Shown here: piece by piece, positions 1 to 10,690 of the stretch
Layout of the letters: the number at the start of each line of letters is the position of its first letter
Numbering within the stretch: position 1 is the stretch's first letter
Source: Chlamydiota bacterium
GTDB taxonomy: Bacteria > Auribacterota > Tritonobacteria > UBA1439
DNA: 20,550 nucleotides
Direction: 5' to 3'
Assembly (NCBI GenBank): GCA_037133055.1
Contig: JBAXOY010000049.1
Coordinates: forward strand, 1-20,550
Notes under the pieces: generated by a model
What the model was told of the DNA's origin: nothing
The model's database searches: none
Seen by the model: only the letters and a program-made list of their open reading frames with translations
Program-made: the position numbers and the translations under genes

Positions 1-2
1 AC

Positions 3-1568
3 ATAGATTCTTCCTCGCCCGCGATAGGTTCGGACGGGAAGGTGTATGTCGGCTCTTGGGATAATAACCTCTACAGCATTAATTCAAACGCGAGCCTTGA
101 CTGGAGTTATCAAACCGGATACCACATAGATTCTTCCTCGCCCGCGATAGGTTCGGACGGGAAGGTGTATGTCGGCTCGATGGATAATCGCTTGTACAGC
201 CTCAATTCAAACGCAAGCCTTGACTGGAGTTATCAAACCGGGTACTGGATAACCTCTTCTCCTGCGATAGGTTCGGACGGGAAGGTGTACGTCGGCTCGT
301 GGGATAATAACCTCTACAGTTTGAATTCAACCGCCAGTCTCGCATGGAGTTGGCAAACCGGGAACTACATAGATTCTTCCTCGCCCGCGATATGTTCCGA
401 CGGGAAGGTGTATGTCGGCTCGACGGATAGGTGTTTCTACAGCCTCAATTCAAACGCAAGTCTATGCTGGAGTTATGAAGCCTACACCGGCATAGTTTCC
501 TCACCCGCGATAGGTTCGGATGGAAGGGTGTATGTTCGCTCGTGGGATAGTAACCTCTATTGTATCGAACAAGGCCCTACTCCCACCATCACACCTACCC
601 CCACGATAACACCGACACCGACAATTACCTCGACCCTGACAGTGACCCCGACGCTAACCATTACGCCGACGCCCACGGCGTCCCCTATACCGACTATGTC
701 ACCGTCACCAACGCCATGGCCCACAGGCGATTTGTGGTGGACACGAGATGTACACGTGTATAACGCGGTTGCGACACCTGCATTGCCAATTGTGGGGGTA
801 TCTGTCCGTGCCAGCGCATATAGTACTGATAGCTGCACTACGGGCGAAGATGGGAGTTGTTCTGTAACAGTACATGCTCATGATACCGGGACAGTGTCTG
901 TAAATGTCTCGGCAGATGGATATGTTCCATTTGAAAACATCTATCCCGGATTACCCGCCTCTGGAGAATTGGAGATTGGACTGTATTCCATAACCCCCAC
1001 GGAGATACCAACCTCGACCCCGACGGATACGCCCACGATTACCTCGACGCCCACGGTTGTGTATCCTTCCATGGAAACGGGAAGCGTATCGGGGATGAGT
1101 ATTGCGGTGCCGAGGTCGATAGAGGACGGGTTTGCGTATGTGCTGATGTGCGCGGACGACCCATGGAAACAAATGGGAGCGGTGTGGGACAGCAACAACG
1201 AATTCGTGGAAAAGGGAAGTTATCCGGCGCAAGCGGTGGGGCTGATGATTCTACGTGACGCAGCCGAGCGGATTACGGTGAATGGGGGAGATTACCTGAC
1301 GATTACGAATGCAGCGGGGGAGGAGATGAAAATCTACCTGCCTGCGCTCGATACGACGGAGGACGTGACGCTATATATCGGCAAGGACGGTGCGACGTAC
1401 TACGACATCGCGCTGAGTGAGGTGGCATGTGCCGCGCCCACGGGAGTCGCAGTGCGGGTGAACTTCCAGCCTGCGGCGGCGACGTCTCCGGATGGGTACT
1501 ATCGCGACCACGGCACGGCGCCGGGCGGACACTGGGGTTCGGCGGGGGCGCAGGACTACGGGTGGTGA
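3..1568 (+). CDS. PQQ/BamB-like beta-propeller repeat surface protein with Pro/Thr linkers, extra beta-rich domains and a C-terminal NFQP...DYGW tail; 5' end lies outside the window
   Basis: Frame is open from base 3. It has ~41-aa repeats SSPAIGSDGKVYVGSWDNNLYSLN...WSYQTG, (PT)n linkers and the C-terminal VRVNFQP...GY..D.G...DYGW shared with the two minus-strand paralogs. Confidence 0.88.
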   Translation: MDSSSPAIGSDGKVYVGSWDNNLYSINSNASLDWSYQTGYHIDSSSPAIGSDGKVYVGSMDNRLYSLNSNASLDWSYQTGYWITSSPAIGSDGKVYVGSWDNNLYSLNSTASLAWSWQTGNYIDSSSPAICSDGKVYVGSTDRCFYSLNSNASLCWSYEAYTGIVSSPAIGSDGRVYVRSWDSNLYCIEQGPTPTITPTPTITPTPTITSTLTVTPTLTITPTPTASPIPTMSPSPTPWPTGDLWWTRDVHVYNAVATPALPIVGVSVRASAYSTDSCTTGEDGSCSVTVHAHDTGTVSVNVSADGYVPFENIYPGLPASGELEIGLYSITPTEIPTSTPTDTPTITSTPTVVYPSMETGSVSGMSIAVPRSIEDGFAYVLMCADDPWKQMGAVWDSNNEFVEKGSYPAQAVGLMILRDAAERITVNGGDYLTITNAAGEEMKIYLPALDTTEDVTLYIGKDGATYYDIALSEVACAAPTGVAVRVNFQPAAATSPDGYYRDHGTAPGGHWGSAGAQDYGW

Positions 1569-1648
1569 AGGCGTTCTTCGACTCGAATCCCATAACAGGG
1601 CGGGCGGACGCGTTCCTCGACGTAAGCGCGAAGTTCACTGTTCAGTAG
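1562..1648 (+). pseudogene. Orphan 3' gene fragment homologous to the C-terminus of ORF 1898-2383
   Basis: Translates VVKAFFDSNPITGRADAFLDVSAKFTVQ*, versus VVVAFFDPSRPITGRQDAFLAPSGKFTIG in 1898-2383. It overlaps the stop codon of the upstream gene in a different frame. Confidence 0.7.
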
Positions 1649-1897
1649 AAGTGCCGTCTGAAGATGGGGAACTGACTCCCGACACATTGTATGTCATCAT
1701 GATGGATAAGAAGACGGTGACGGTCGCGTAGTGACCTTGTCGTCAGGGAGGAACACATGCCCGTTTCTGATAATGTAACACTTTTGAGCGGAGCGTGTTG
1801 TGCGTGATGTTCTCCCCCCCCAGGTGGCGTGTTGCTCTAAAGAGTGATATCCTTTACATAAGCACTATACCAGACTGCTCACCGAGGGGAGGGGCCC

Positions 1898-2383
1898 GTG
1901 AAGAGATCAGCTATGTTCTTGTGTATTCTTGTCGCAGAGGCTGCACTGTGTCATGCTCAGGTGCCGCAAGCGCAGGTGGTAATGAGCTCGGAGTGCTACT
2001 CTCCGTCGACGACCAGCTCGCAGACGGTAATGAGCGAGGGGTTTTACTCTTCGTCGACGACCAGCACGATAGAGTCAACCTTTGTGCTGAACCGGGCCAT
2101 CGAGAGTCCGTTTACTGTGTACGCAGTCGTCATTTTCCCCGACGGGAGCATGCGCAACTGTCTCGGCCTGAACGCCCCGCTCAAGCCGGTGGCGACCAAG
2201 ATGACGGGCCTCCCCGCCCCGTTCACCTATCCGCTCCTCTCCCTACCCGTTCCTGTGGGCGCGCCCTTCGGGCTGTACGAGGTCGTCGTGGCGTTCTTCG
2301 ACCCCTCGAGGCCCATCACTGGGCGGCAAGACGCTTTCCTGGCCCCAAGCGGTAAGTTCACTATTGGGTCTTGTACTGAATAA
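1898..2383 (+). CDS. Secreted hypothetical protein with a beta-sandwich-like C-terminal domain
   Basis: GTG start preceded by GGGGAGGGG. Signal-peptide-like N-terminus MKRSAMFLCILVAEAALCHA. Contains an internal 16-aa duplication. Confidence 0.7.
   Translation: MKRSAMFLCILVAEAALCHAQVPQAQVVMSSECYSPSTTSSQTVMSEGFYSSSTTSTIESTFVLNRAIESPFTVYAVVIFPDGSMRNCLGLNAPLKPVATKMTGLPAPFTYPLLSLPVPVGAPFGLYEVVVAFFDPSRPITGRQDAFLAPSGKFTIGSCTE
1972..2067 (+). repeat. 48-bp in-frame tandem duplication
   Basis: gcaggtggtaatgagctcggagtgctactctccgtcgacgaccagctc followed by gcagacggtaatgagcgaggggttttactcttcgtcgacgaccagcac. Confidence 0.85.
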
Positions 2384-2776
2384 GCAGGTTAGAGATTGTA
2401 GGTGGCAATCCTCCTCTACCTATTTAGGGTAGAGGATAGGAGCCGGCAGGAAACAGGGGAGCAGGCGAGCACCCGGTACGGGCATCCTCGCAGTTCCCCT
2501 CTTTTGTGCCGATAGTGTAGGGAAAAGGGTAAATTGCTTCCGTGTGCGTCCCGATGTCTTGTGTTATTGCCCTGCCACAAGGTCGGGCGGAAAGAGTACA
2601 TCAGTTCACAAGGACCTCCGGCGGGCGAAAAAGAGTATCCGCTTCAATGTACCCGACTAAAAAAGGAGGTACCATGCAACAGGGAGTACATTGTATAATC
2701 TCGGCGAACGGACAGACTTATACTACGGCAACGACGGTTTCTGGGTTCTGGTTTTTGGCAGAAGAAAATACGGTAT

Positions 2777-3255: not shown

Positions 3256-3331
3256 GACCCCATCGTCCAGAGGCCTAGGACTTCAGATTTTCGATCTGAA
3301 AACCCGGGTTCGAATCCCGGTGGGGTCGCCA
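3256..3331 (+). tRNA. tRNA-Glu(UUC), CCA encoded
   Basis: Acceptor stem GACCCCA/TGGGGTC, discriminator G then CCA. Anticodon arm TCAGA-TTTTCGA-TCTGA with TTC at 3290-3292. T arm CCGGG-TTCGAAT-CCCGG. 76 nt. Confidence 0.95.
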
Positions 3332-3336
3332 CGCAT

Positions 3337-3370
3337 AAAAGGGGCCTCTATTGAGGCCCCTTTTTCTTTT
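3337..3370 (+). terminator. Intrinsic, probably bidirectional terminator after the tRNA
   Basis: aaaaggggcctc-tatt-gaggcccctttt followed by a T tract. Confidence 0.85.
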
Positions 3371-3479
3371 AGCATTGCACGCGCGAGGTTAAGTCTAGCG
3401 AAGCGAAGTCCCTATCCTATTCCCCCTCATATTTTGTTGCGTGGGCGCGGAGCGGCTCGGTCAATGGGGGGGATGCTTC

Positions 3480-4733
3480 TCACCTCCAGCCGTAATCGCC
3501 CCATTCTCCATATGGAGCGCCATCGTCTACCAGATATCCGCTGGGGATTGCCGCCCCTGCAGACTGGTAATTAATCTGCTCCTTGACTGGCGTTGGTGTC
3601 CCGGTCGGTATGGGCGCCTGCTTTATACAATAAAAACGATTATCATTGGAACCGACATACACGCTACCATCGCTCCCGAGCGCTGGGGAGGCGAATATAC
3701 GATATCCAGTCACATAGCTCCATGCCAGCGAGCCCCCGGAGTTGAAGGAGTATAGACATCCATCCCTGGAGCCGACATACACGCCCCTATCACTCCCGAG
3801 CGCGGGCGAGGATAATACTTCATATCCGGTTTCATAGCTCCACCAGAGCGAGCCACTGGAAGTGAAGGAGTAAAGATGGTTATCGTCGGAGCCAACGTAC
3901 ACTCTCCTATTGATCCCGAGCGCGGGGGAGGAGTCCACATCTCCTCCGGTTACATAGCTCCATGCGAGCGAGCCACTGGAATTTATGGTGTAAAGACGGT
4001 TATCACTGGAGCCGACATACACACCCCCATCGCTCCCGAGCGTAGGGGAGGAGTACATAATCCCTCTTCCGGTAGTGTAGCTCCATGTGAGCGAGCCCCC
4101 GGACGTGAGGGCGTAAAGACGATTATCCCAGGAGCCGACATATACGCCCCCATCGCTTCCGAGCGCAGGGGAGGAGTATACCCAACTCCCGGTCAGATGG
4201 CTCCACGCGAGCGAGCCCCCAGGAGTGAGGGCATAAAGACGGTTATCCAAGGAGCCGACATACACTCCCCCGTCGCTCCCGAGCGCAGGAGAGGACATCA
4301 CATAACTTCCGGTCACATAACTCCATGCGAGCGAGCCTGTGGAGGTGATAGCGTAAAGACGGTTATCGTAAGAACCGAAATACACGCCCCCATCGCTCCC
4401 AAGCGCAGGGGAGGACTCCCAAGTACTACCGTAATAACTCCATGCGAGCGAGCCTGTGGAAGTGAAGGAGTATAAATTCAAGTCACCACAGCCGACATAC
4501 ACGCCCCCATCGCTCCCGAGCGCGGGAGAGGAGAAGTACCATATATAAATGGCCTTATAGCTCCAGGAGAGCACGGGGATTGACGGCCCCGCATATGAAC
4601 TCCTCCCCACATGCTGAGCATCGTGCCGGAACATCGGCCACGGACTATCGGCGAGTTGGGAATAGGCAGGGAGCATAAAAAGGGATGATACGAGCGAGGA
4701 CATTATCGCATACAGAGGGAATATGCGCCGCAT
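3480..4733 (-). CDS. Secreted PQQ/BamB-like beta-propeller repeat protein
   Basis: Likely ATG at 4733 (AGGAGGGG RBS). Signal peptide, SPWPMFRHDAQHVGRS motif, eight SSPALGSDGGVYVGSxDNRLY repeats, short PT linker and an NYQS...DYGWR tail. Confidence 0.9.
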   Translation of the reverse strand: MRRIFPLYAIMSSLVSSLFMLPAYSQLADSPWPMFRHDAQHVGRSSYAGPSIPVLSWSYKAIYIWYFSSPALGSDGGVYVGCGDLNLYSFTSTGSLAWSYYGSTWESSPALGSDGGVYFGSYDNRLYAITSTGSLAWSYVTGSYVMSSPALGSDGGVYVGSLDNRLYALTPGGSLAWSHLTGSWVYSSPALGSDGGVYVGSWDNRLYALTSGGSLTWSYTTGRGIMYSSPTLGSDGGVYVGSSDNRLYTINSSGSLAWSYVTGGDVDSSPALGINRRVYVGSDDNHLYSFTSSGSLWWSYETGYEVLSSPALGSDRGVYVGSRDGCLYSFNSGGSLAWSYVTGYRIFASPALGSDGSVYVGSNDNRFYCIKQAPIPTGTPTPVKEQINYQSAGAAIPSGYLVDDGAPYGEWGDYGWR

Positions 4734-4862
4734 AAGCCCCTCCTGTGTGCCGAGGTTCATCTTCTGATGGCAAGAGTATCATAATTCAGAGCGGTGGAGA
4801 ATAGGCAAGTTTGGCACTGGCAAGTTTGGCACAATCGGGGCGTGTTCTTCGGGGAGATATAG

Positions 4863-4981
4863 TATCCCACAGGGTGGGGTAGAAACGCTCAAGATGCGAG
4901 GCGCCTCACCACCTCGGGGATAAAAACGTCGGCCATCCGCCAGATCTTGGTTCTAACGTCGTCCACTACGCGTCGCCAGCA
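4863..4981. repeat. att-like junction repeat, copy 1 (pairs with 6429-6547)
   Basis: ~118-bp direct repeat. The terminal tggttctaacgtcgtccactacgcgtcgccagca is identical in both copies. Confidence 0.9.
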
Positions 4982-5022
4982 ATAAATCCCCATTTCGCCG
5001 TAAGGCGTCATGGGGATTTATT
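4981..5022. terminator. Hairpin / putative bidirectional terminator
   Basis: 13-bp stem aataaatccccat...atggggatttatt with an inner cgcc-gtaa-ggcg hairpin. Confidence 0.75.
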
Positions 5023-5056
5023 ATGCATACTTAAGGCGAGGCAATCCGTTGGTTTC

Positions 5057-6292
5057 TCACCTCCAGCCATAATCGCCCCACGCCCCATATTCAGAGCCGT
5101 CATCTTTCAGATATCCCTCGGGCACTACCGCTCCTGACGGCTGGAAGTTCATCCTCACCGGCGTCGGCGTGGGCGTGGGCCTCTGTTTTATGCAATAGAG
5201 GCGGTTATCAAGGGAGCCGATATACACGCACCCGTTGCTCCCGAGCGAGGGGGAGTACGTTACAACGCTCCCAGTTGCATAGCTCCATAAGAGTGAACCG
5301 CCAGAGGTTAGGGCGTAAAGACGGTTATCGCCGGAGCCGATATATACGCCCCCATCGCTCCCGAGCGCTGGGGAGTATCCTACGCTGCCCCCGGTCATAT
5401 AGCTCCACAAGAGTGCGCCCCCGGAGGTGAAGGTAAAAAGTCTGTTATCTAGAGCTCCAACATATACTCTCCCGTTACTCCCGAGCGCTGGGCAAAAATC
5501 AGACAACCCTGCGGTCCGATAGCTCCACGCGACCGAGCCAACGGAGGTGAGGGCGTAAAACCGCCAATTAGAGGAGCCGATATACACGCTCCCGTCGCTC
5601 CCGAGCGCGGGGGAGCAGTTCGCCGTGAAAGCATGATAGCTCCAACCGAGGCTCGCGTTTGAGTTGAGGCTATAGAGGCGACCATCCCACGAGCCGACAT
5701 ACACACTCCCGTCACTCCCAAGCGCGGGGGAGGAGTATATTTTCCATCCGGTCTCATAGCTCCACTCGAGCCCGCCGCCGGAAATGAGGGCGTAAAGACG
5801 GTAATCGTGGGACCCGACATATACGCGCCCGTCACTCCCGAGAGCGGGGTCGTAATGTACTATTTCCCCGGCTTCATAGCACCACGAGAACGAGCCGACG
5901 GATGTAAGCGCATAAAGACGATTATCGTCGGAGCCAGCATATATGCCGCCGTCACTCCCGAGCGCGGGGGAGGAGTATATTGCCGCTTCGGTCGCATAGC
6001 TCCATAAAAGTGAACCGCTAGAGGTGAGGGCGTAAAGACGATTATCGCCGGAGCCGACGTATACGCCGCCGTCATTCCCGAGCGCGGGGGAGGAGTATAT
6101 TGCCGCTCCGGTCGCATAACTCCACGAGAGTGCGGGTATTAAAGGTCCTGTATACTCACTCTGCCCCGTGTGCTTCGCATCATGCTGAAACATCGGCCAA
6201 GGAGTATCAGCGAGTTGAGAATAGACAATAGGGGTAGAAATGGGGAATAGGTAGAACGACACTGCCACATAAAGAAGGAAACTTCGCCTCAT
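5057..6292 (-). CDS. Secreted PQQ/BamB-like beta-propeller repeat protein (paralog of 3480-4733)
   Basis: Likely ATG at 6292 (AAGAGGG RBS). YSQLADTPWPMFQHDAKHTGQS motif, eight propeller repeats, PTPTPTP linker and an NFQP...DYGWR tail. Confidence 0.9.
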   Translation of the reverse strand: MRRSFLLYVAVSFYLFPISTPIVYSQLADTPWPMFQHDAKHTGQSEYTGPLIPALSWSYATGAAIYSSPALGNDGGVYVGSGDNRLYALTSSGSLLWSYATEAAIYSSPALGSDGGIYAGSDDNRLYALTSVGSFSWCYEAGEIVHYDPALGSDGRVYVGSHDYRLYALISGGGLEWSYETGWKIYSSPALGSDGSVYVGSWDGRLYSLNSNASLGWSYHAFTANCSPALGSDGSVYIGSSNWRFYALTSVGSVAWSYRTAGLSDFCPALGSNGRVYVGALDNRLFTFTSGGALLWSYMTGGSVGYSPALGSDGGVYIGSGDNRLYALTSGGSLLWSYATGSVVTYSPSLGSNGCVYIGSLDNRLYCIKQRPTPTPTPVRMNFQPSGAVVPEGYLKDDGSEYGAWGDYGWR

Positions 6293-6428
6293 AATCCCTC
6301 TTACGGACATACGGCGGGGAATAGACGCCCCAACCGATAACCAGTAATGCTGCTCACCTACAAGTAGAGTATAACATAATCCTATTGTGAATGAGGGGGA
6401 AACATCATTATCGGGGTGAAATATATGA

Positions 6429-6547
6429 TATCCCTCAGGGTGGGGTAGAAATGCTCACGATGCGGGGCAGGGCATCACATCGGGGATGAAAACGTCGGCC
6501 ATTCGCCGGATTCTGGTTCTAACGTCGTCCACTACGCGTCGCCAGCA
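6429..6547. repeat. att-like junction repeat, copy 2
   Basis: Direct repeat of 4863-4981, with GTCGCCA at 6538-6544. Confidence 0.9.
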
Positions 6548-6550
6548 TCG

Positions 6551-6588
6551 CCGCGGAGTCTGAGAAGGCTCCGCGGTTGCTCTTTCTA
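6551..6588. terminator. GC-rich hairpin / putative terminator
   Basis: ccgcggagtct-gaga-aggctccgcgg followed by ttgctctttct. Confidence 0.65.
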
Positions 6589-6663
6589 TAGGTTTCAATG
6601 TGGCGCGGGCGTGCTCATCACGGCATCCAGGTGCCGATTGTTGCCGTATCTGCGGCCTGATAT

Positions 6664-7614
6664 CTACTCCCCCTCAGTATCCTTGTGCGCAGTTTTCTTC
6701 CGCCACGGCCCACCAGGAAGCCAAACCATCTCGAAGCCAGTATCCTGGTTCATTGCTTTCAGAGGAGGTATGAGGAATATTCCAAGCGCCGTAATCACTT
6801 CTTCCAGAGACAGGCCTTTTGTAGCCGCTGGCAGGCGCCGGATAAATGCCTTCCATTGGGTTATCTTTACGGGGTCTTTTGAGAACTCCTCGGTGAGAGC
6901 CATTGGAGCATCAGATGAAAGGGAGGTAGCTCTCCTCTCGAAGGTTGCCTTTATGCTCCGGGTAAGCACATCCCCTTTGAATTCGAGATGGCGCGAGAGA
7001 ATCCAGAGATCATAGAAATCCTTCATGCGACTGTTGGCTTTCTCCAGTTCCACCATGGCCTGGAGTTTCTCGGCTACCACTGTTTCGGGAGGACACGCCT
7101 TCAGGGTGGGGGTGGGGAAACCGAGCATCGAAGGGTATTCGATAACGATCGGCGCGGGATGAACCACGTCACCGAGGCCCACATCAAGTTGCATGTGAAT
7201 CCTGGAATTGCCGAGGGTCGCGAGGAATGTAAGTCGCCAGCCATGATATTCGGCCTCGCCTGTGATGGCGGACGTTTCAATAGTAGCGGTATGGAAACGC
7301 AGGCCGTCCTCCTCAACGGTGACTGCCGCCGCTTCTCTGACGACCTCCGCCAGTGACTCGCCGTTGAACTTCATCCGGCCCATGAGGTCGATGTCTGCCG
7401 TTGGTCGGGCCGGAGGGACATTCCAGATTCGCAGAAGCAGGGCGCCCTTAAGAAGTAGCCTGTCGGCATGCCGTGTTTTCGAGAGTCGATAGAGAAATCG
7501 CTCCATGGCATAGTACTGGAGAAACTCGGCATAAGGGCGTCCGCTTTGCCTGGCCATGGCGAGTAGGCGATCATGCACCGAATGTGCGATATTGGTCAGC
7601 GGTCGCCGGTTCAT
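6664..7614 (-). CDS. abiEii: AbiEii/AbiGii-family nucleotidyltransferase toxin (type IV toxin-antitoxin / abortive infection)
   Basis: Motifs YAMERFLYRLS, LLLKGALLL, RPTADIDL, LDVGLGD, ETVVAEKLQAM and NSRMKDFYDL. ATGA overlap with the antitoxin gene. Confidence 0.92.
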   Translation of the reverse strand: MNRRPLTNIAHSVHDRLLAMARQSGRPYAEFLQYYAMERFLYRLSKTRHADRLLLKGALLLRIWNVPPARPTADIDLMGRMKFNGESLAEVVREAAAVTVEEDGLRFHTATIETSAITGEAEYHGWRLTFLATLGNSRIHMQLDVGLGDVVHPAPIVIEYPSMLGFPTPTLKACPPETVVAEKLQAMVELEKANSRMKDFYDLWILSRHLEFKGDVLTRSIKATFERRATSLSSDAPMALTEEFSKDPVKITQWKAFIRRLPAATKGLSLEEVITALGIFLIPPLKAMNQDTGFEMVWLPGGPWRKKTAHKDTEGE

Positions 7615-8219
7615 TGCAGGGCCTCCAGATAAGGCATCATCACCCGCTCAACACGGCAGAGCCGAGCGTAACGCAGGAGTTGGGCAGCATCGTTTTTTTT
7701 GCGTTCGAGGCAGAAACGGAGCGCCTCTACCGCCACGTCGATCCCAATCCTGTTTCGAAGCCGGAAACAGTCCGCGACCGTCTTGGCGGGTGAGTAGATT
7801 CGTACCGCCACGCCATCCAGTAGATGACTCTCCACCCCTTCGGTGAACGGCTTGCCGGTGAAACGAAATACCCGGAGTGGGGGATAGTCGAGCCGTGGCT
7901 GCTTGGAGCCCCTGGGAAGAGCTATATCGACAGCATGTGGGATCTGGGTTGTTATCCCGTGGAATGATAGGGCTGAGATCATACAGACGATGGCTGAAGG
8001 GATTTTCGCGGAAGCGGTGGCCAGATCGGGATTGCCGAGGCGCGGCAGCCCTGCGAGGCGGTAAAGGCCTCTGGTGAGCTGAACGATCTTCCCCTGATCC
8101 CTCAGGCGGTAGAGTGTGCGGGGATGGATGCCCAGGGCCAGGGCTTGAGTAGTCCGGAGCATCCCCCCATGCTGCTTGAACAGCTCTTGTGCCTTTGCGT
8201 CATTCCGGGTCGTTTTCAT
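7611..8219 (-). CDS. abiEi: AbiEi-family antitoxin / transcriptional regulator (type IV toxin-antitoxin)
   Basis: N-terminal wHTH (HGGMLRTTQALALGIHPRTLYRL...RGLYRL), then SALSFHGITTQIP and IYSPAKTVADCFR. Directly upstream of abiEii. Confidence 0.9.
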   Translation of the reverse strand: MKTTRNDAKAQELFKQHGGMLRTTQALALGIHPRTLYRLRDQGKIVQLTRGLYRLAGLPRLGNPDLATASAKIPSAIVCMISALSFHGITTQIPHAVDIALPRGSKQPRLDYPPLRVFRFTGKPFTEGVESHLLDGVAVRIYSPAKTVADCFRLRNRIGIDVAVEALRFCLERKKNDAAQLLRYARLCRVERVMMPYLEALQ

Positions 8220-8351
8220 GGCTGGATAAATATACCATCACTTATGCGCAGGTGTAAACCTTATTATCCGATAATCCACCTCTCCCCTTACATGCTGGGC
8301 TAAGGGGAGTAGGGACGAGATTCCTGCCAAAGATCTGTAATAGCGCTGATA

Positions 8352-8397
8352 TGGATAAAATGTCGGAGATTGCGGAGAATATCCGACGTTATATCCA
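8352..8397. promoter_or_regulatory. Inverted repeat upstream of abiEi, candidate operator
   Basis: tggataaaatgtcgga-N14-tccgacgttatatcca, 14/16 match between arms. Confidence 0.45.
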
Positions 8398-8612
8398 GGG
8401 CGAGGAGGCTGATTTATGAAGGCCAAGATCTTCCTGCTATTAAGTGACAGGCAAGCCCAAGGGCATTTAACGCTGGATTCCCGCTTATGCGGGAATAACA
8501 GGCGCTGCGATTTTGGGCCGCCCCCAGCCCCCCTCTCATACCCTGGTTCCAAGGAGCAGAGGGAGTAGAAGAGAGGTGGCCGCAAAGGGCGCTAAGCCCT
8601 GGATTATGGAGG

Positions 8613-8706
8613 TTATCCTGCACAGAAGGCTCCCGATTCCTTCAGCATCTTGATTGATTGGAGCCAGTCGAGTATCTGGTTCCATCTGGAAATCACGTGG
8701 GCGCCA
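8613..8706 (-). other. att-like junction 3 with orphan recombinase-tail-like peptide
   Basis: GGTTC(8678)-N17-GGCGCCA(8700-8706). Minus strand reads ..SRWNQILDWLQSIKMLKESGAFCAG*. Confidence 0.65.
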
Positions 8707-8710
8707 GAGT

Positions 8711-8745
8711 AAGAGAGAGCCCCGCGCGAGGGCTCTCTCTTTTTT
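8711..8745 (+). terminator. Intrinsic terminator
   Basis: aagagagagccc-cgcgcga-gggctctctctt followed by a T tract. Confidence 0.85.
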
Positions 8746-8999
8746 ATGGGTGGGAAAGCACCAGGGCGAATGGATTCCGAAGCTGTAGTAAAGAGTAAAG
8801 GTTTGACCCCGCCCGGACTTTGCGGACTTTGCTATTGACGTTCAGACCCCGGACCCCGTTCATAGCCGATGTCGGACGCCCCAAAGTTTGCATCACAGGA
8901 ATGAACCACGTGGCTGCCGCAGGATTACAGCCGAATCTATTGACGCAAAGTCCGCATTTTGGTCCACTGGTAACATGCTGTTAACGCGAAAGTCTCCCT

Positions 9000-10430
9000 G
9001 TGAAACGATTCTTTATCTGTGCCTTGCTAGTCGCAATCACGATATTCACATCGTGTGCACGCCCAAGAGTTAAACCAGATGCTATTCAACCAATGAACCA
9101 CTCCACTCCCGTACATGCCACTCTGGACGATTGGATTGCACGCGAGGCGATTCCGTTTTCCGTCGATTCGCCGGCAACCTTCAATGCCGGTGTTGCAAAG
9201 ATTGTTGCCGATCGTGGCGATTCGGTGGAGTTGCTCGGCTTCGGAGAAACGCTTCACGGCGGCGAGGACATTCTCATCCTCCGCAACCGGCTCTTCCAGC
9301 GCCTGGTGGAGGCGCATGGCTACAGCGCCATTGCCGTCGAGAGCAGTTTCCCCCGGGCGCGCGCAGTGAACGAGTACGTGGCCGGTCGCGGCCCGGCATC
9401 GTACGAGGCTGTGCAGGAGAGCGGATTCAGCCACGGCTTCGGCCGGCTCGACGCGAATCGAGAACTCGTGGAGTGGATGCGGCGATACAATGTCGATCCT
9501 TCCCATCGCGTCAAACTCCGGTTCTACGGCTTCGACAGTCCGACCGAAATGATCGGCAGCGATAGTCCGCGGCAACTTCTGCATTTTGTTCTCGATTACC
9601 TCGCTTCGATTGATCCTGCCGGGGGCCGGGAGCATCGAGAACGCATCGACCCGCTTCTCGGCCGGGACGCCGATTGGGAGAACCCCGCTGCATCGATGGA
9701 CCCGACGAAGTCGGTAGGCCTGTCACCAGCCGCAACGGCGTTGCGGATCGAGACGGAGGACCTCATCACGGAACTGACCGTACGCCGCCCCGAATTGACG
9801 GCCAAGAGCGACGAGTCGCGGTATTCGGAGGCCCTCCATTACGCTTCGGTGGCCCGGCAGTTGCTGGACTATCACGCCGAGTTGGCGCGGAAGTCGGATA
9901 CACGGCTTGTCCGTCTTCTCGGCATTCGCGACGCGATGATGGCGGACAATCTGGCGTACATGGTGTCGCATGAGCGCGGCCGGGGGAAAGTGCTGGTATT
10001 CGCTCACAACAGCCATCTGCAGCGCGGGAAGGCACACTGGCAACTCGGCGCCGAGATGCTCGCATGGTGGCCGGCGGGAGCGCACCTCCATGAGATGTTC
10101 GGCCCGCGCTATGCCGTCATCGGCTCGGCAGTGGGCGTTTCCGAGGCGAATGGCATCGGCCCGCCCGAAGCCGGCACTCTTGAGGCGCGCCTGACCGCCG
10201 TGCCGGGGCCGGCGCTGTTCATTCCGACTCACAGAGGCCAAGGGCTTCCAGCCTCTGCAATCGCAGCTCTTCCGACTCGCTCCGGCAGCATGAAGAACCC
10301 GACCTACTTTGCACTCACCCCACAAAGCTTCACCGATTTCGACTGGCTGGCTGTCCTGGATTCAACGGCATACAACCGCGGTGGGCCGCCGCTGCAGCAA
10401 TGGGACGCTAGTGAGGTGTCCCGGAAATAA
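9000..10430 (+). CDS. Erythromycin esterase (Ere) family protein, possibly a lipoprotein
   Basis: Motifs LLGFGETLHG, RNRLFQRLVEAHGYSAIAVES, LRFYGFD, RDAMMADN and AHNSHLQR. N-terminal MKRFFICALLVAITIFTSC resembles a lipobox. Alternative ATG at 9093. Confidence 0.85.
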   Translation: MKRFFICALLVAITIFTSCARPRVKPDAIQPMNHSTPVHATLDDWIAREAIPFSVDSPATFNAGVAKIVADRGDSVELLGFGETLHGGEDILILRNRLFQRLVEAHGYSAIAVESSFPRARAVNEYVAGRGPASYEAVQESGFSHGFGRLDANRELVEWMRRYNVDPSHRVKLRFYGFDSPTEMIGSDSPRQLLHFVLDYLASIDPAGGREHRERIDPLLGRDADWENPAASMDPTKSVGLSPAATALRIETEDLITELTVRRPELTAKSDESRYSEALHYASVARQLLDYHAELARKSDTRLVRLLGIRDAMMADNLAYMVSHERGRGKVLVFAHNSHLQRGKAHWQLGAEMLAWWPAGAHLHEMFGPRYAVIGSAVGVSEANGIGPPEAGTLEARLTAVPGPALFIPTHRGQGLPASAIAALPTRSGSMKNPTYFALTPQSFTDFDWLAVLDSTAYNRGGPPLQQWDASEVSRK

Positions 10431-10444
10431 CCTGTCTTAATCAT

Positions 10445-10523
10445 GTCATCTCTGAAAGCGAAGCGACGAAGCAATCTATTGGGTGACAATGCGTTGAGAT
10501 TGCTTCGCTTTGGCTCCCAATGA
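10445..10523. repeat. Degenerate REP-like palindromic element
   Basis: gtcat...agcgaagcgacgaagcaatct ... agattgcttcgctt...caatga, with perfect 11-bp arms cgaagcaatct/agattgcttcg. Confidence 0.65.
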
Positions 10524-10560
10524 TCACAAAACAATTAGTAGGGCAGATTACGGGACGCTG

Positions 10561-10650
10561 AACAGCGGCTGCGACGGATGATTCTCTCAGGATATTCATC
10601 TCGCTCAGCCACTTGACAATCTGGTTCCAACCGGCAACCGTTTGAGTCGC
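10561..10650 (-). other. att-like junction 4 (distal island boundary) with orphan recombinase-tail-like peptide
   Basis: GGTTC(10623)-N18-GTCGC(10646-10650). Minus strand reads ATQTVAGWNQIVKWLSEMNILRESS. Confidence 0.65.
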
Positions 10651-10652
10651 TG

Positions 10653-10690
10653 AAAATAGAAAGAGCCCTTGCGAGGGCTCTTTCTATTTT
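10653..10690. terminator. Bidirectional intrinsic terminator
   Basis: Perfect 17-bp stem aaaatagaaagagccct-tgcg-agggctctttctatttt. Confidence 0.88.

Follow-up and report, generated by a model that had tools for sequence, protein, structure and literature searches.

The window analysed here is a 20,550-nt stretch (contig JBAXOY010000049.1, positions 1 to 20,550, of assembly GCA_037133055.1) from a Chlamydiota bacterium placed in the Auribacterota by GTDB, whose genome, G000, is 92% complete. It contains a tRNA-Glu(ttc) gene followed by a row of four small units, each closed by a junction (J1–J4 for units 1–4) that bears a copy of the tRNA 3' end. This row very probably originated from the attachment (att) sites of large serine recombinases (LSRs). 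With somewhat less assurance, we favor the explanation that islands now devoid of a recombinase were inserted by LSRs, accreted at the 3' end of tRNA-Glu and then decayed. Serial accretion by LSRs, with the newest island next to the tRNA, is well supported; each packet ends in a recombination-site scar, and the packets were therefore likely stacked by repeated insertions.

The units occupy positions 3332–4978, 4979–6544, 6545–8706 and 8707–10652 (1647, 1566, 2162 and 1946 bp), and their GC content is 0.56–0.59 as compared with 0.67 beyond 10.7 kb. Three units are oriented on the minus strand, facing the tRNA, and one on the plus strand, facing away. No recombinase gene was found in any of them by Pfam/PADLOC annotation and LSR profile scans. 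An earlier note, made from the letters of this DNA alone, had described four integrase-less units of uniform layout behind the tRNA; the coordinates, motifs, spacers and hairpins bear out the units and their junctions, and the lack of an integrase is confirmed. The repeated order of hairpin, cargo and GGTTC motif also holds, whereas full uniformity does not: the core of J4 ends in CTG rather than CCA, the core of J3 is short by one base, and the junctions are of two types without relation to each other, J1/J2 (with 86% likeness across 125 nt) and J3/J4. The hairpins found 3' of the tRNA and of each junction (minimum free energy of -25 to -29 kcal/mol per 60 nt) are members of a repeat family present elsewhere in G000, and a promoter/terminator scan gave overall no excess over shuffled sequence.

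Each junction is built from an 8-mer of the form GGTTCnnn, a spacer and a copy of the last 7 nt of the tRNA, with the motifs starting at 4949, 6515, 8678 and 10623. Counted from the 8-mer, the spacer measures 15, 15, 14 and 15 nt at J1–J4, as opposed to 10 nt in tRNA-Glu itself, i.e., the motif is shifted by 5 bp between the tRNA (attB) and J1, J2 and J4 (attP). A shift of this size is the attP/attB signature of LSRs, and we therefore read the junctions as LSR attP-type arms. In the LI integrase, the zinc-ribbon (ZD) motif lies at positions 16–24 in attP and 11–19 in attB (Rutherford et al. 2013, PMC3783163). The 9-mer that ends in the 8-mer would fit these ZD positions if strand exchange takes place near tRNA positions 69/70. 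Four of the six genomic copies of the Glu-specific form of the motif lie in this 7.4 kb, where about 0.002 would be expected by chance, a post hoc count of a motif defined after being seen.

The family of the recombinase emerged from islands that carry the same site. A metagenome scan with the J4 pattern gave eight loci. Locus L093 has the order tRNA-Glu, an antisense LSR gene overlapping the tRNA end (Resolvase, Recombinase and Zn-ribbon domains), three small genes, a methyltransferase and a J4-type arm. Relatives of the L093 LSR, of which the best 80 of 176 genome loci were examined, occur mostly in Acidobacteria and also in Nitrospira, Omnitrophica and Verrucomicrobia, and a tRNA 3' end adjoins 51 of these 80 loci (Ala 29, Lys 12, Glu 9, Val 1). 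A J3/J4-type site closes the island at 23 of the 51 tRNA-adjacent loci, besides L093, and of 32 loci whose sequence extends 5 kb or more past the LSR, 22 contain a motif followed by the 7-nt tail. Among 37 downstream matches to motif plus tail, 30 have a spacer of 15 (11 spacings tested; P about 3e-25, with kin that are not independent), and in 16 out of 24 pairs, attL and attR remain identical for precisely 2 nt to the left of the 7-nt tail. By sequence, the LSR family matches the A118/LI integrase structure (E 3e-7). The earlier note had taken the junctions for attP arms of a site-specific recombinase, and the L093-type islands, the spacer of 15, the attL/attR pairs and the tail profile described below uphold this view and point to the large serine family.

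The arms are also ends of recombinase genes. Read antisense, the arms of one LSR clade (clade A, that of J3 and J4) encode a conserved C-terminal tail of ~26–31 residues in frame with the LSR. An integrated clade-A LSR terminates after 12–21 tRNA-antisense codons, and P0176, a full-length database LSR, ends in the same tail as the clade-A arms. Among 120 clade-A relatives, 2 have the tail end and 104 the tRNA-antisense end (a rough pattern); similarly, by rough labels, 60 out of 79 LSR ends at the genome loci read into a tRNA and 2 into a tail. When the six-frame translation of the genome is searched with a profile of two database LSR tails, J4 (33.6 bits) and J3 (11.4 bits) are the sole matches, and an independent profile from 16 island ends matches only J4 in G000. 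The loci L152 and L161 contain truncated LSRs deeper in the stack that read in frame through the junction into the tail. In 16 recombinase-less clade-A arms, the tail is free of stop codons over 22 codons in every case, and the ratio of nonsynonymous to synonymous polymorphism (pN/pS) is 0.47 in frame vs 1.19 and 1.13 off frame, for pairs that are not independent. In an AlphaFold model of P0176, the tail appears as a helix (residues 501–515) with a per-residue confidence (pLDDT) of 35–57. These gene ends show that an LSR gene of this kind extends in antisense through its own att site, acquiring a tRNA-antisense end when integrated and leaving the tail at the far end of the island. The arms had also been considered as arm sites of a tyrosine integrase, a candidate rejected when the reading frame of the tail was found.

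In a different antisense frame, J1 and J2 read W-x6-VRT. A tail of the form W..LL[ND].VRT occurs in the same register in 23 of 120 clade-B LSRs, the relatives of a second LSR, from genome G007, 77 of which end in tRNA antisense. By this pattern, J1 and J2 resemble the clade-B tail, and likely they too still carry the end of an LSR gene. The 8-mer takes the same position in two reading frames, suggesting a constraint at the DNA level besides the coding one. A pattern for the J1/J2 tail gave nine matches in 8 of 79 genomes of the phylum, two of them being J1 and J2 themselves and none of the others identical. Viral contigs yielded one clade-A LSR with a broken end, no match to the clade-A arm pattern and no clade-B LSR.

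As a separate observation, a second copy of GGTTCCAA was seen in 13 of 17 clade-A arms, 110–161 bp before the junction and with 10 nt to a GG; the arms at the 80 genome loci hardly ever have it (1 of 30). By its spacing, the second GGTTCCAA copy could be an internal attB-like site.

Under the favored explanation, the zinc-ribbon domain would recognize the 8-mer both in the T-loop of the tRNA (attB) and, displaced outward by 5 bp, in the element (attP), and strands would be exchanged close to tRNA positions 69/70. The right half-site holds little beyond the last 7 nt of the tRNA, so that the tRNA would still be a usable target after each insertion. Newcomers would enter beside the tRNA and displace older islands outward, and the older islands would lose the LSR body through deletion or cargo replacement with the arms retained, as in cis-mobilizable elements (CIMEs). 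Two or more LSR clades would have fed the stack, clade A at J3/J4 and likely clade B at J1/J2. A unit would move only on arrival of a matching LSR; the simplest reaction would join the tRNA site to a downstream arm, the proximal units being lost first. The damaged distal junctions J3 and J4 are probably fixed. The newest-first order proposed in the earlier note agrees with the location of intact recombinases, which mostly occupy the tRNA-proximal slot.

Positions, strands and remarks for the individual features are collected in Table 1.

Table 1. Features of the tRNA-Glu locus (positions in the window)
Feature	Position	Strand	Remarks
tRNA-Glu(ttc)	3256..3331	+	T-loop 8-mer 3307-3314 and last 7 nt 3325-3331, likely an attB-type half-site with spacer 10
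Hairpin, terminator-like, left arm of unit 1	3337..3364	+	repeat family also on contigs C80 and C188
PQQ-type beta-propeller gene, 426 aa, cargo of unit 1	3480..4760	-	Pfam/PADLOC
J1 right arm, 29-codon antisense frame resembling clade-B LSR tail	4889..4978	-	attP-type half-site 4949-4978 on +
Hairpin, left arm of unit 2	4981..5022	+	same family directly 3' of tRNA-Glu in G007
PQQ-type beta-propeller gene, 417 aa, cargo of unit 2	5057..6310	-	61% identical to the unit 1 propeller
J2 right arm, J1 type	6455..6544	-	half-site 6515-6544; final 34 nt as in J1
Hairpin, terminator-like, left arm of unit 3	6550..6577	+	
AbiEi (7611-8219) and AbiEii (6664-7614), type IV toxin-antitoxin pair, cargo of unit 3	6664..8219	-	Pfam/PADLOC
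Extra GGTTCCAA copy, 133 bp upstream of J3	8545..8552	+	tRNA-like 10-nt spacing to GG
J3 right arm, clade-A LSR tail	8613..8706	-	half-site 8678-8706, core minus 1 nt; 11.4 bits
Hairpin, terminator-like, left arm of unit 4	8711..8741	+	followed by REP-like 26-mer 8786-8811, also on other contigs
Erythromycin-esterase-family protein, 476 aa, cargo of unit 4	9000..10430	+	remote homologue only; Pfam/PADLOC
J4 right arm, clade-A LSR tail	10570..10652	-	half-site 10623-10652, decayed core; 33.6 bits, top match genome-wide
Hairpin after J4	10653..10690	+	same family after tRNA-Asn on C21 and after junctions in G007, L096 and L098

The esterase of unit 4 scores 48.8 bits vs the EreB cut-off of 750. 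The C-terminal ends of three propellers of the window (3480–3570, 5057–5150 and 1450–1568) look similar, of the form NFQP...YGW(R).

The stack varies among relatives, as the earlier note had anticipated. A search for the tRNA region in 41 genomes recovered the same locus in G002, G004, G005, G007 and G008. In G002, which belongs to the same genus, the tRNA is followed by its terminator, two genes and dnaX, without the array. In G007, the tRNA is directly followed by the hairpin family of the left arm of unit 2, and another contig, C81, carries six J4-type junctions (one degenerate) before the conserved flank, with propellers, a hydrogenase operon, ExbBD and other genes as cargo; synteny suggests that C81 joins the tRNA contig. 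Among the metagenome loci, L098 has a recombinase-less stack with four junctions behind tRNA-Glu(ttc), and in L092, L094 and L099 the same arm is fused to the tail of tRNA-Glu(ctc). Of 79 genomes of the phylum, a single one has the strict site, i.e., the arms are patchy. Cargo common to G007, L096, L097 and L098 has differing neighbors, its breakpoints lying at junctions in some cases and at the internal end, resembling a repetitive extragenic palindromic (REP) element, of the left arm in others. The units in L098 and L095 retain LSR remnants at the left end, and so do those in L152 and L161. Pattern matches in G003, G004, G005 and G006 were dismissed as chance occurrences, being located in genes or lacking hairpins (three G004 matches excepted from inspection).

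Other structures were seen at these loci. In G008 (contig C42, L043/L044), tRNA-Glu is followed by a unit of 200 bp that contains no gene and is closed by an exact 18-nt copy of the tRNA end plus a second terminator, a geometry that differs from that of the LSR arms. In L092, which has one unit behind tRNA-Glu(ctc), the left arm matches, as an 85% copy, the 240 bp beyond the right junction (reverse strand, 1400–1641 and 4148–4387). By eye, the segment directly behind tRNA-Glu in G005 (contig C124, L041) also contains, oriented as in the window, an AbiEi-like gene and a truncated AbiEii-like end.

A second stack, of tRNA-Asn type, was found in G000. On the minus strand of contig C80 (L218), at ~13344, 8110 and 2377, there are two spacer-15 sites with a tRNA-Asn tail and hairpins and a degenerate third site; the stack is recombinase-less, shows two further tail types and carries Fic, YhcG, DUF488, a phosphate transporter and a two-component pair as cargo. 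A tRNA-Asn gene on contig C21 (C21:30862, L219), missed by ARAGORN and containing a group I intron, is followed by the same hairpin family, which suggests a link between the C80 stack and this tRNA.

Population data come from the contigs of six runs (X1–X6) out of twelve that match part of the window; no RNA run was listed as matching. Contigs of X3 and X6, from two other studies, depart from the window right after position 3331 into one shared new sequence (98% likeness), and the match of an X4 contig also ends at 3331 with the contig continuing. This position and the array-free locus of G002 agree with the breakpoint at the tRNA CCA proposed in the earlier note. X3 retains pieces of all four units and spans J2. 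The X3/X6 break fits a new unit entering at the tRNA, with the old units behind it on the same molecule not visible in contigs. The sequence after the CCA in X3/X6 has no exact match in five genomes and one 3-mismatch match in G001. A loose end of X2 at 3332 (90% likeness) was discarded, as it disappeared at 98%. Neither a circle, which the earlier note had suggested looking for, nor a joint skipping a whole unit was seen in the contigs of X1–X6.

In X2, a variant departs at 4743, inside unit 1 and away from any core, and a 120-nt repeat deletion is seen in unit 2. These accord with local duplication and homologous recombination among propeller paralogues, in which units 1 and 2 would be copies of one ancestor. 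The two propellers are reciprocal best matches in the genome among ~25 paralogous places, and the likeness of J1 and J2 points the same way. We nevertheless regard this explanation of the array as improbable: it leaves J3/J4, the LSR tails and the 5-bp shift unexplained, and units 1 and 2 have different left arms, that of unit 2 lying directly on the tRNA in G007.

Accretion followed by decay has to be weighed against a number of contrary findings. The GG that precedes the 7-nt tail in 23 of 24 clade-A sites is absent at all four junctions of the window. The inverted motif GAACC, which textbook LSR sites have, was found in just 1 of 51 left arms and 1 of 30 right flanks; with right halves lacking it, attL would stay a target and the stacks would be able to grow. 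No LSR of either clade was found in the 92% complete G000, where the earlier note had proposed to look for one (no PF07508 match, no match to the L093 LSR and nothing above 12 bits with clade-A and clade-B profiles), nothing close to the L093 LSR was found in seven genomes of the family (best identity of 30–35%), and the left arms of the window units contain no LSR remnant. A clade-B tail profile gave no match to J1/J2 at the printed thresholds, and no LSR with the exact J1/J2 tail was recovered by a phylum pattern, a 42-residue protein query or a viral pattern. Finally, in G007, L096 and L098 at least six left arms are nearly identical but adjoin unrelated cargo, which fits an actively reused shell better than simple decay, and the same is true of the J1/J2 half-site, which is identical over 34 nt with 17 differences in the remaining 91 nt (P about 0.003, post hoc).

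Reuse of this kind would be the rule if the units were dedicated, self-propagating but non-autonomous cassettes with fixed arms and changing cargo, moved in trans by visiting LSRs. The C-terminal tail would then be kept because a cassette in front of an LSR island supplies the full C-terminus of that LSR. We consider this, the main rival explanation, rather unlikely, even though a good part of the evidence agrees with it. One left arm (84–95% identical) and a right arm surround the unrelated cargo in G007, L096 and L098; the 34-nt identity of J1 and J2 persists although their cargo is only 61% identical; all 16 LSR-less clade-A arms keep an open tail under purifying selection; LSR-less units fill the tRNA-proximal slot in G000, G007 and L092; and units of 0.77–3.6 kb without an LSR recur at 8 of the best 80 LSR loci. 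By eye, the smallest of the latter in Acidobacteria (L154, L171 and L170; 0.8–0.9 kb) look like toxin-antitoxin pairs, and in L154 two LSR-less units are nearly duplicate. On the other hand, neither a circle nor a joint deleting a whole unit was seen in the contigs of the six runs, the breaks in shared cargo often fall on internal REP-like ends instead of cores, some left arms hold LSR remnants, J3 and J4 are damaged, and the tail is reached by only 2 of 79 LSR ends, both belonging to truncated LSRs. That the units are purpose-built cassettes, still moving on their own, was not substantiated; the arms are severed LSR gene ends under protein-type constraint.

The earlier note had also likened the array to an integron, and units of a single gene or operon set off by a recurring boundary do recall such a product. 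Six tyrosine-recombinase (PF00589) matches are present in G000, namely XerD, XerC, one phage-type gene and three fragments. However, none of them reaches the integron-integrase cut-off (best TIGR02249 score of 141 bits, for XerD, vs 265). The boxes of attC sites have the paired consensus RYYYAAC and GTTRRRY; no such pairs were found on either strand within 200 nt of the tRNA end or of the four junctions. With no IntI and no attC, the array is not an integron in mechanism, and its arms are LSR gene ends, which makes an origin as an integron or tyrosine-integrase product very improbable. The three fragments (C13:14906-15214, C70:711-899 and C168:1143-1298) are 3' ends of tyrosine integrases that lie a short way upstream of tRNA-Met, tRNA-Ser and tRNA-Phe and were likely left behind as scars by islands of another class.

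Upstream of the array, window positions 1–2720 form a second low-GC cargo zone (a propeller gene and a 161-aa secreted protein) that precedes the IVP gene. Relatives carry tRNA-Lys(ttt) at this place, a tRNA missing from the G000 list, and the counterpart in G004 contains a 2.1-kb unit bounded by a repeat of the tRNA-Lys end. A sequence of the type TACTAC(G/A)G lies 3' of the CCA of ~10 tRNAs in G000 and before the IVP gene (window 2720–2750), and it also begins one internal unit in G007.

The principle of accretion in which units lack a recombinase has been published before, for the Dehalococcoides ssrA islands and for CIMEs, and the gain of the present analysis is in mechanism and breadth. 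The Dehalococcoides islands (McMurdie et al. 2011, PMC3146451) are tandem insertions at ssrA in which the LSR DsiB overlaps attL and 15 islands have no integration module; the authors suggest that the LSR is complete only on the circle or downstream of a neighboring island. The likeness extends to the tandem arrangement behind a tRNA-like gene, the many islands without an integration module and the overlap of the LSR end with attL, which is matched by L093 and by 60 of 79 LSR ends of related autonomous islands. In contrast, the target there is ssrA with a 20-bp repeat, whereas here it is tRNA-Glu (Ala, Lys, Val, Asn and Pro in relatives) with 7–9 shared nt. The integration module there has six genes, with DsiA/DsiB; L093 shows one LSR, three small genes and a methyltransferase. 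The units described here, of 1.6–2.2 kb, further differ in two LSR clades per stack, the T-loop as the shifted motif and a definable conserved tail.

In CIMEs, integration and transfer genes are lost and att sites kept, and later elements enter where the target gene ends to produce tandems with chimeric internal att sites (PMC5704250). The tRNA-Glu units likewise have no integration or transfer genes, keep their att sites and stand in tandem at a gene end, with damaged J3 and J4 cores; the published examples involve tyrosine integrases and helper integrative conjugative or integrative mobilizable elements, while here an LSR is split by its own att site. The motif shift is shared with LI/A118 (PMC3783163), but in the present case the motif occupies the left half-site only, attP lies inside the LSR gene and the target is a tRNA end. 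Staphylococcal (SCC) and enterococcal (ECC) cassette chromosomes (PMC6222049) are also islands moved by LSRs, in which the cargo varies and one gene end bears several att sites as well as remnants; they target rlmH with a CcrAB pair, as opposed to a tRNA and LSRs of 81–132 bits, far below Ccr cut-offs (900 for CcrB). Prochlorococcus tycheposons (bioRxiv 10.1101/2020.12.28.424599) also target tRNAs and stack, older ones being pushed inward, and a minority use an LSR; unlike the units here, 910 of 937 have tyrosine integrases, with att sites of ~40 nt and replication genes on board. Integrons resemble the array in that small units of accessory genes are lined up between repeated boundaries, none with a recombinase of its own. 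They rely on IntI, attI, attC and one shared Pc promoter, in contrast to double-stranded LSR half-sites, three units on the minus and one on the plus strand, and a hairpin before each unit.

The Islander description states that serine integrases are not known to target tRNA genes, and its procedure rejects islands below 2 kb or without an integrase (PMC4383910); a 2026 preprint reports serine integrases in <1% of the att-delimited islands of its species set. Our literature search, with supplements and most subscription journals outside its scope, found no publication on tRNA-targeting LSRs with a split C-terminal tail.

A broader and decidedly tentative proposal is that of a cassette format shared across phyla by tRNA-targeting LSRs, a serine-recombinase counterpart of the integron. 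Shells would load host-type cargo and be inserted or removed in trans, the tail would switch the LSR from a tRNA-truncated to a full-length form, and the second GGTTCCAA copy would let internal units excise.

The LSRs described here appear to read the universal T-loop and to need few of the last tRNA bases, which would explain the many tRNA targets per clade and the growing stacks. The analysis names an enzyme family and a site grammar for common hypervariable tRNA loci that are missed by tools requiring a tyrosine integrase and a long repeat. The swap of the LSR C-terminus upon integration offers a concrete idea for the control of directionality, and these LSRs could serve for serial insertion at tRNA genes.

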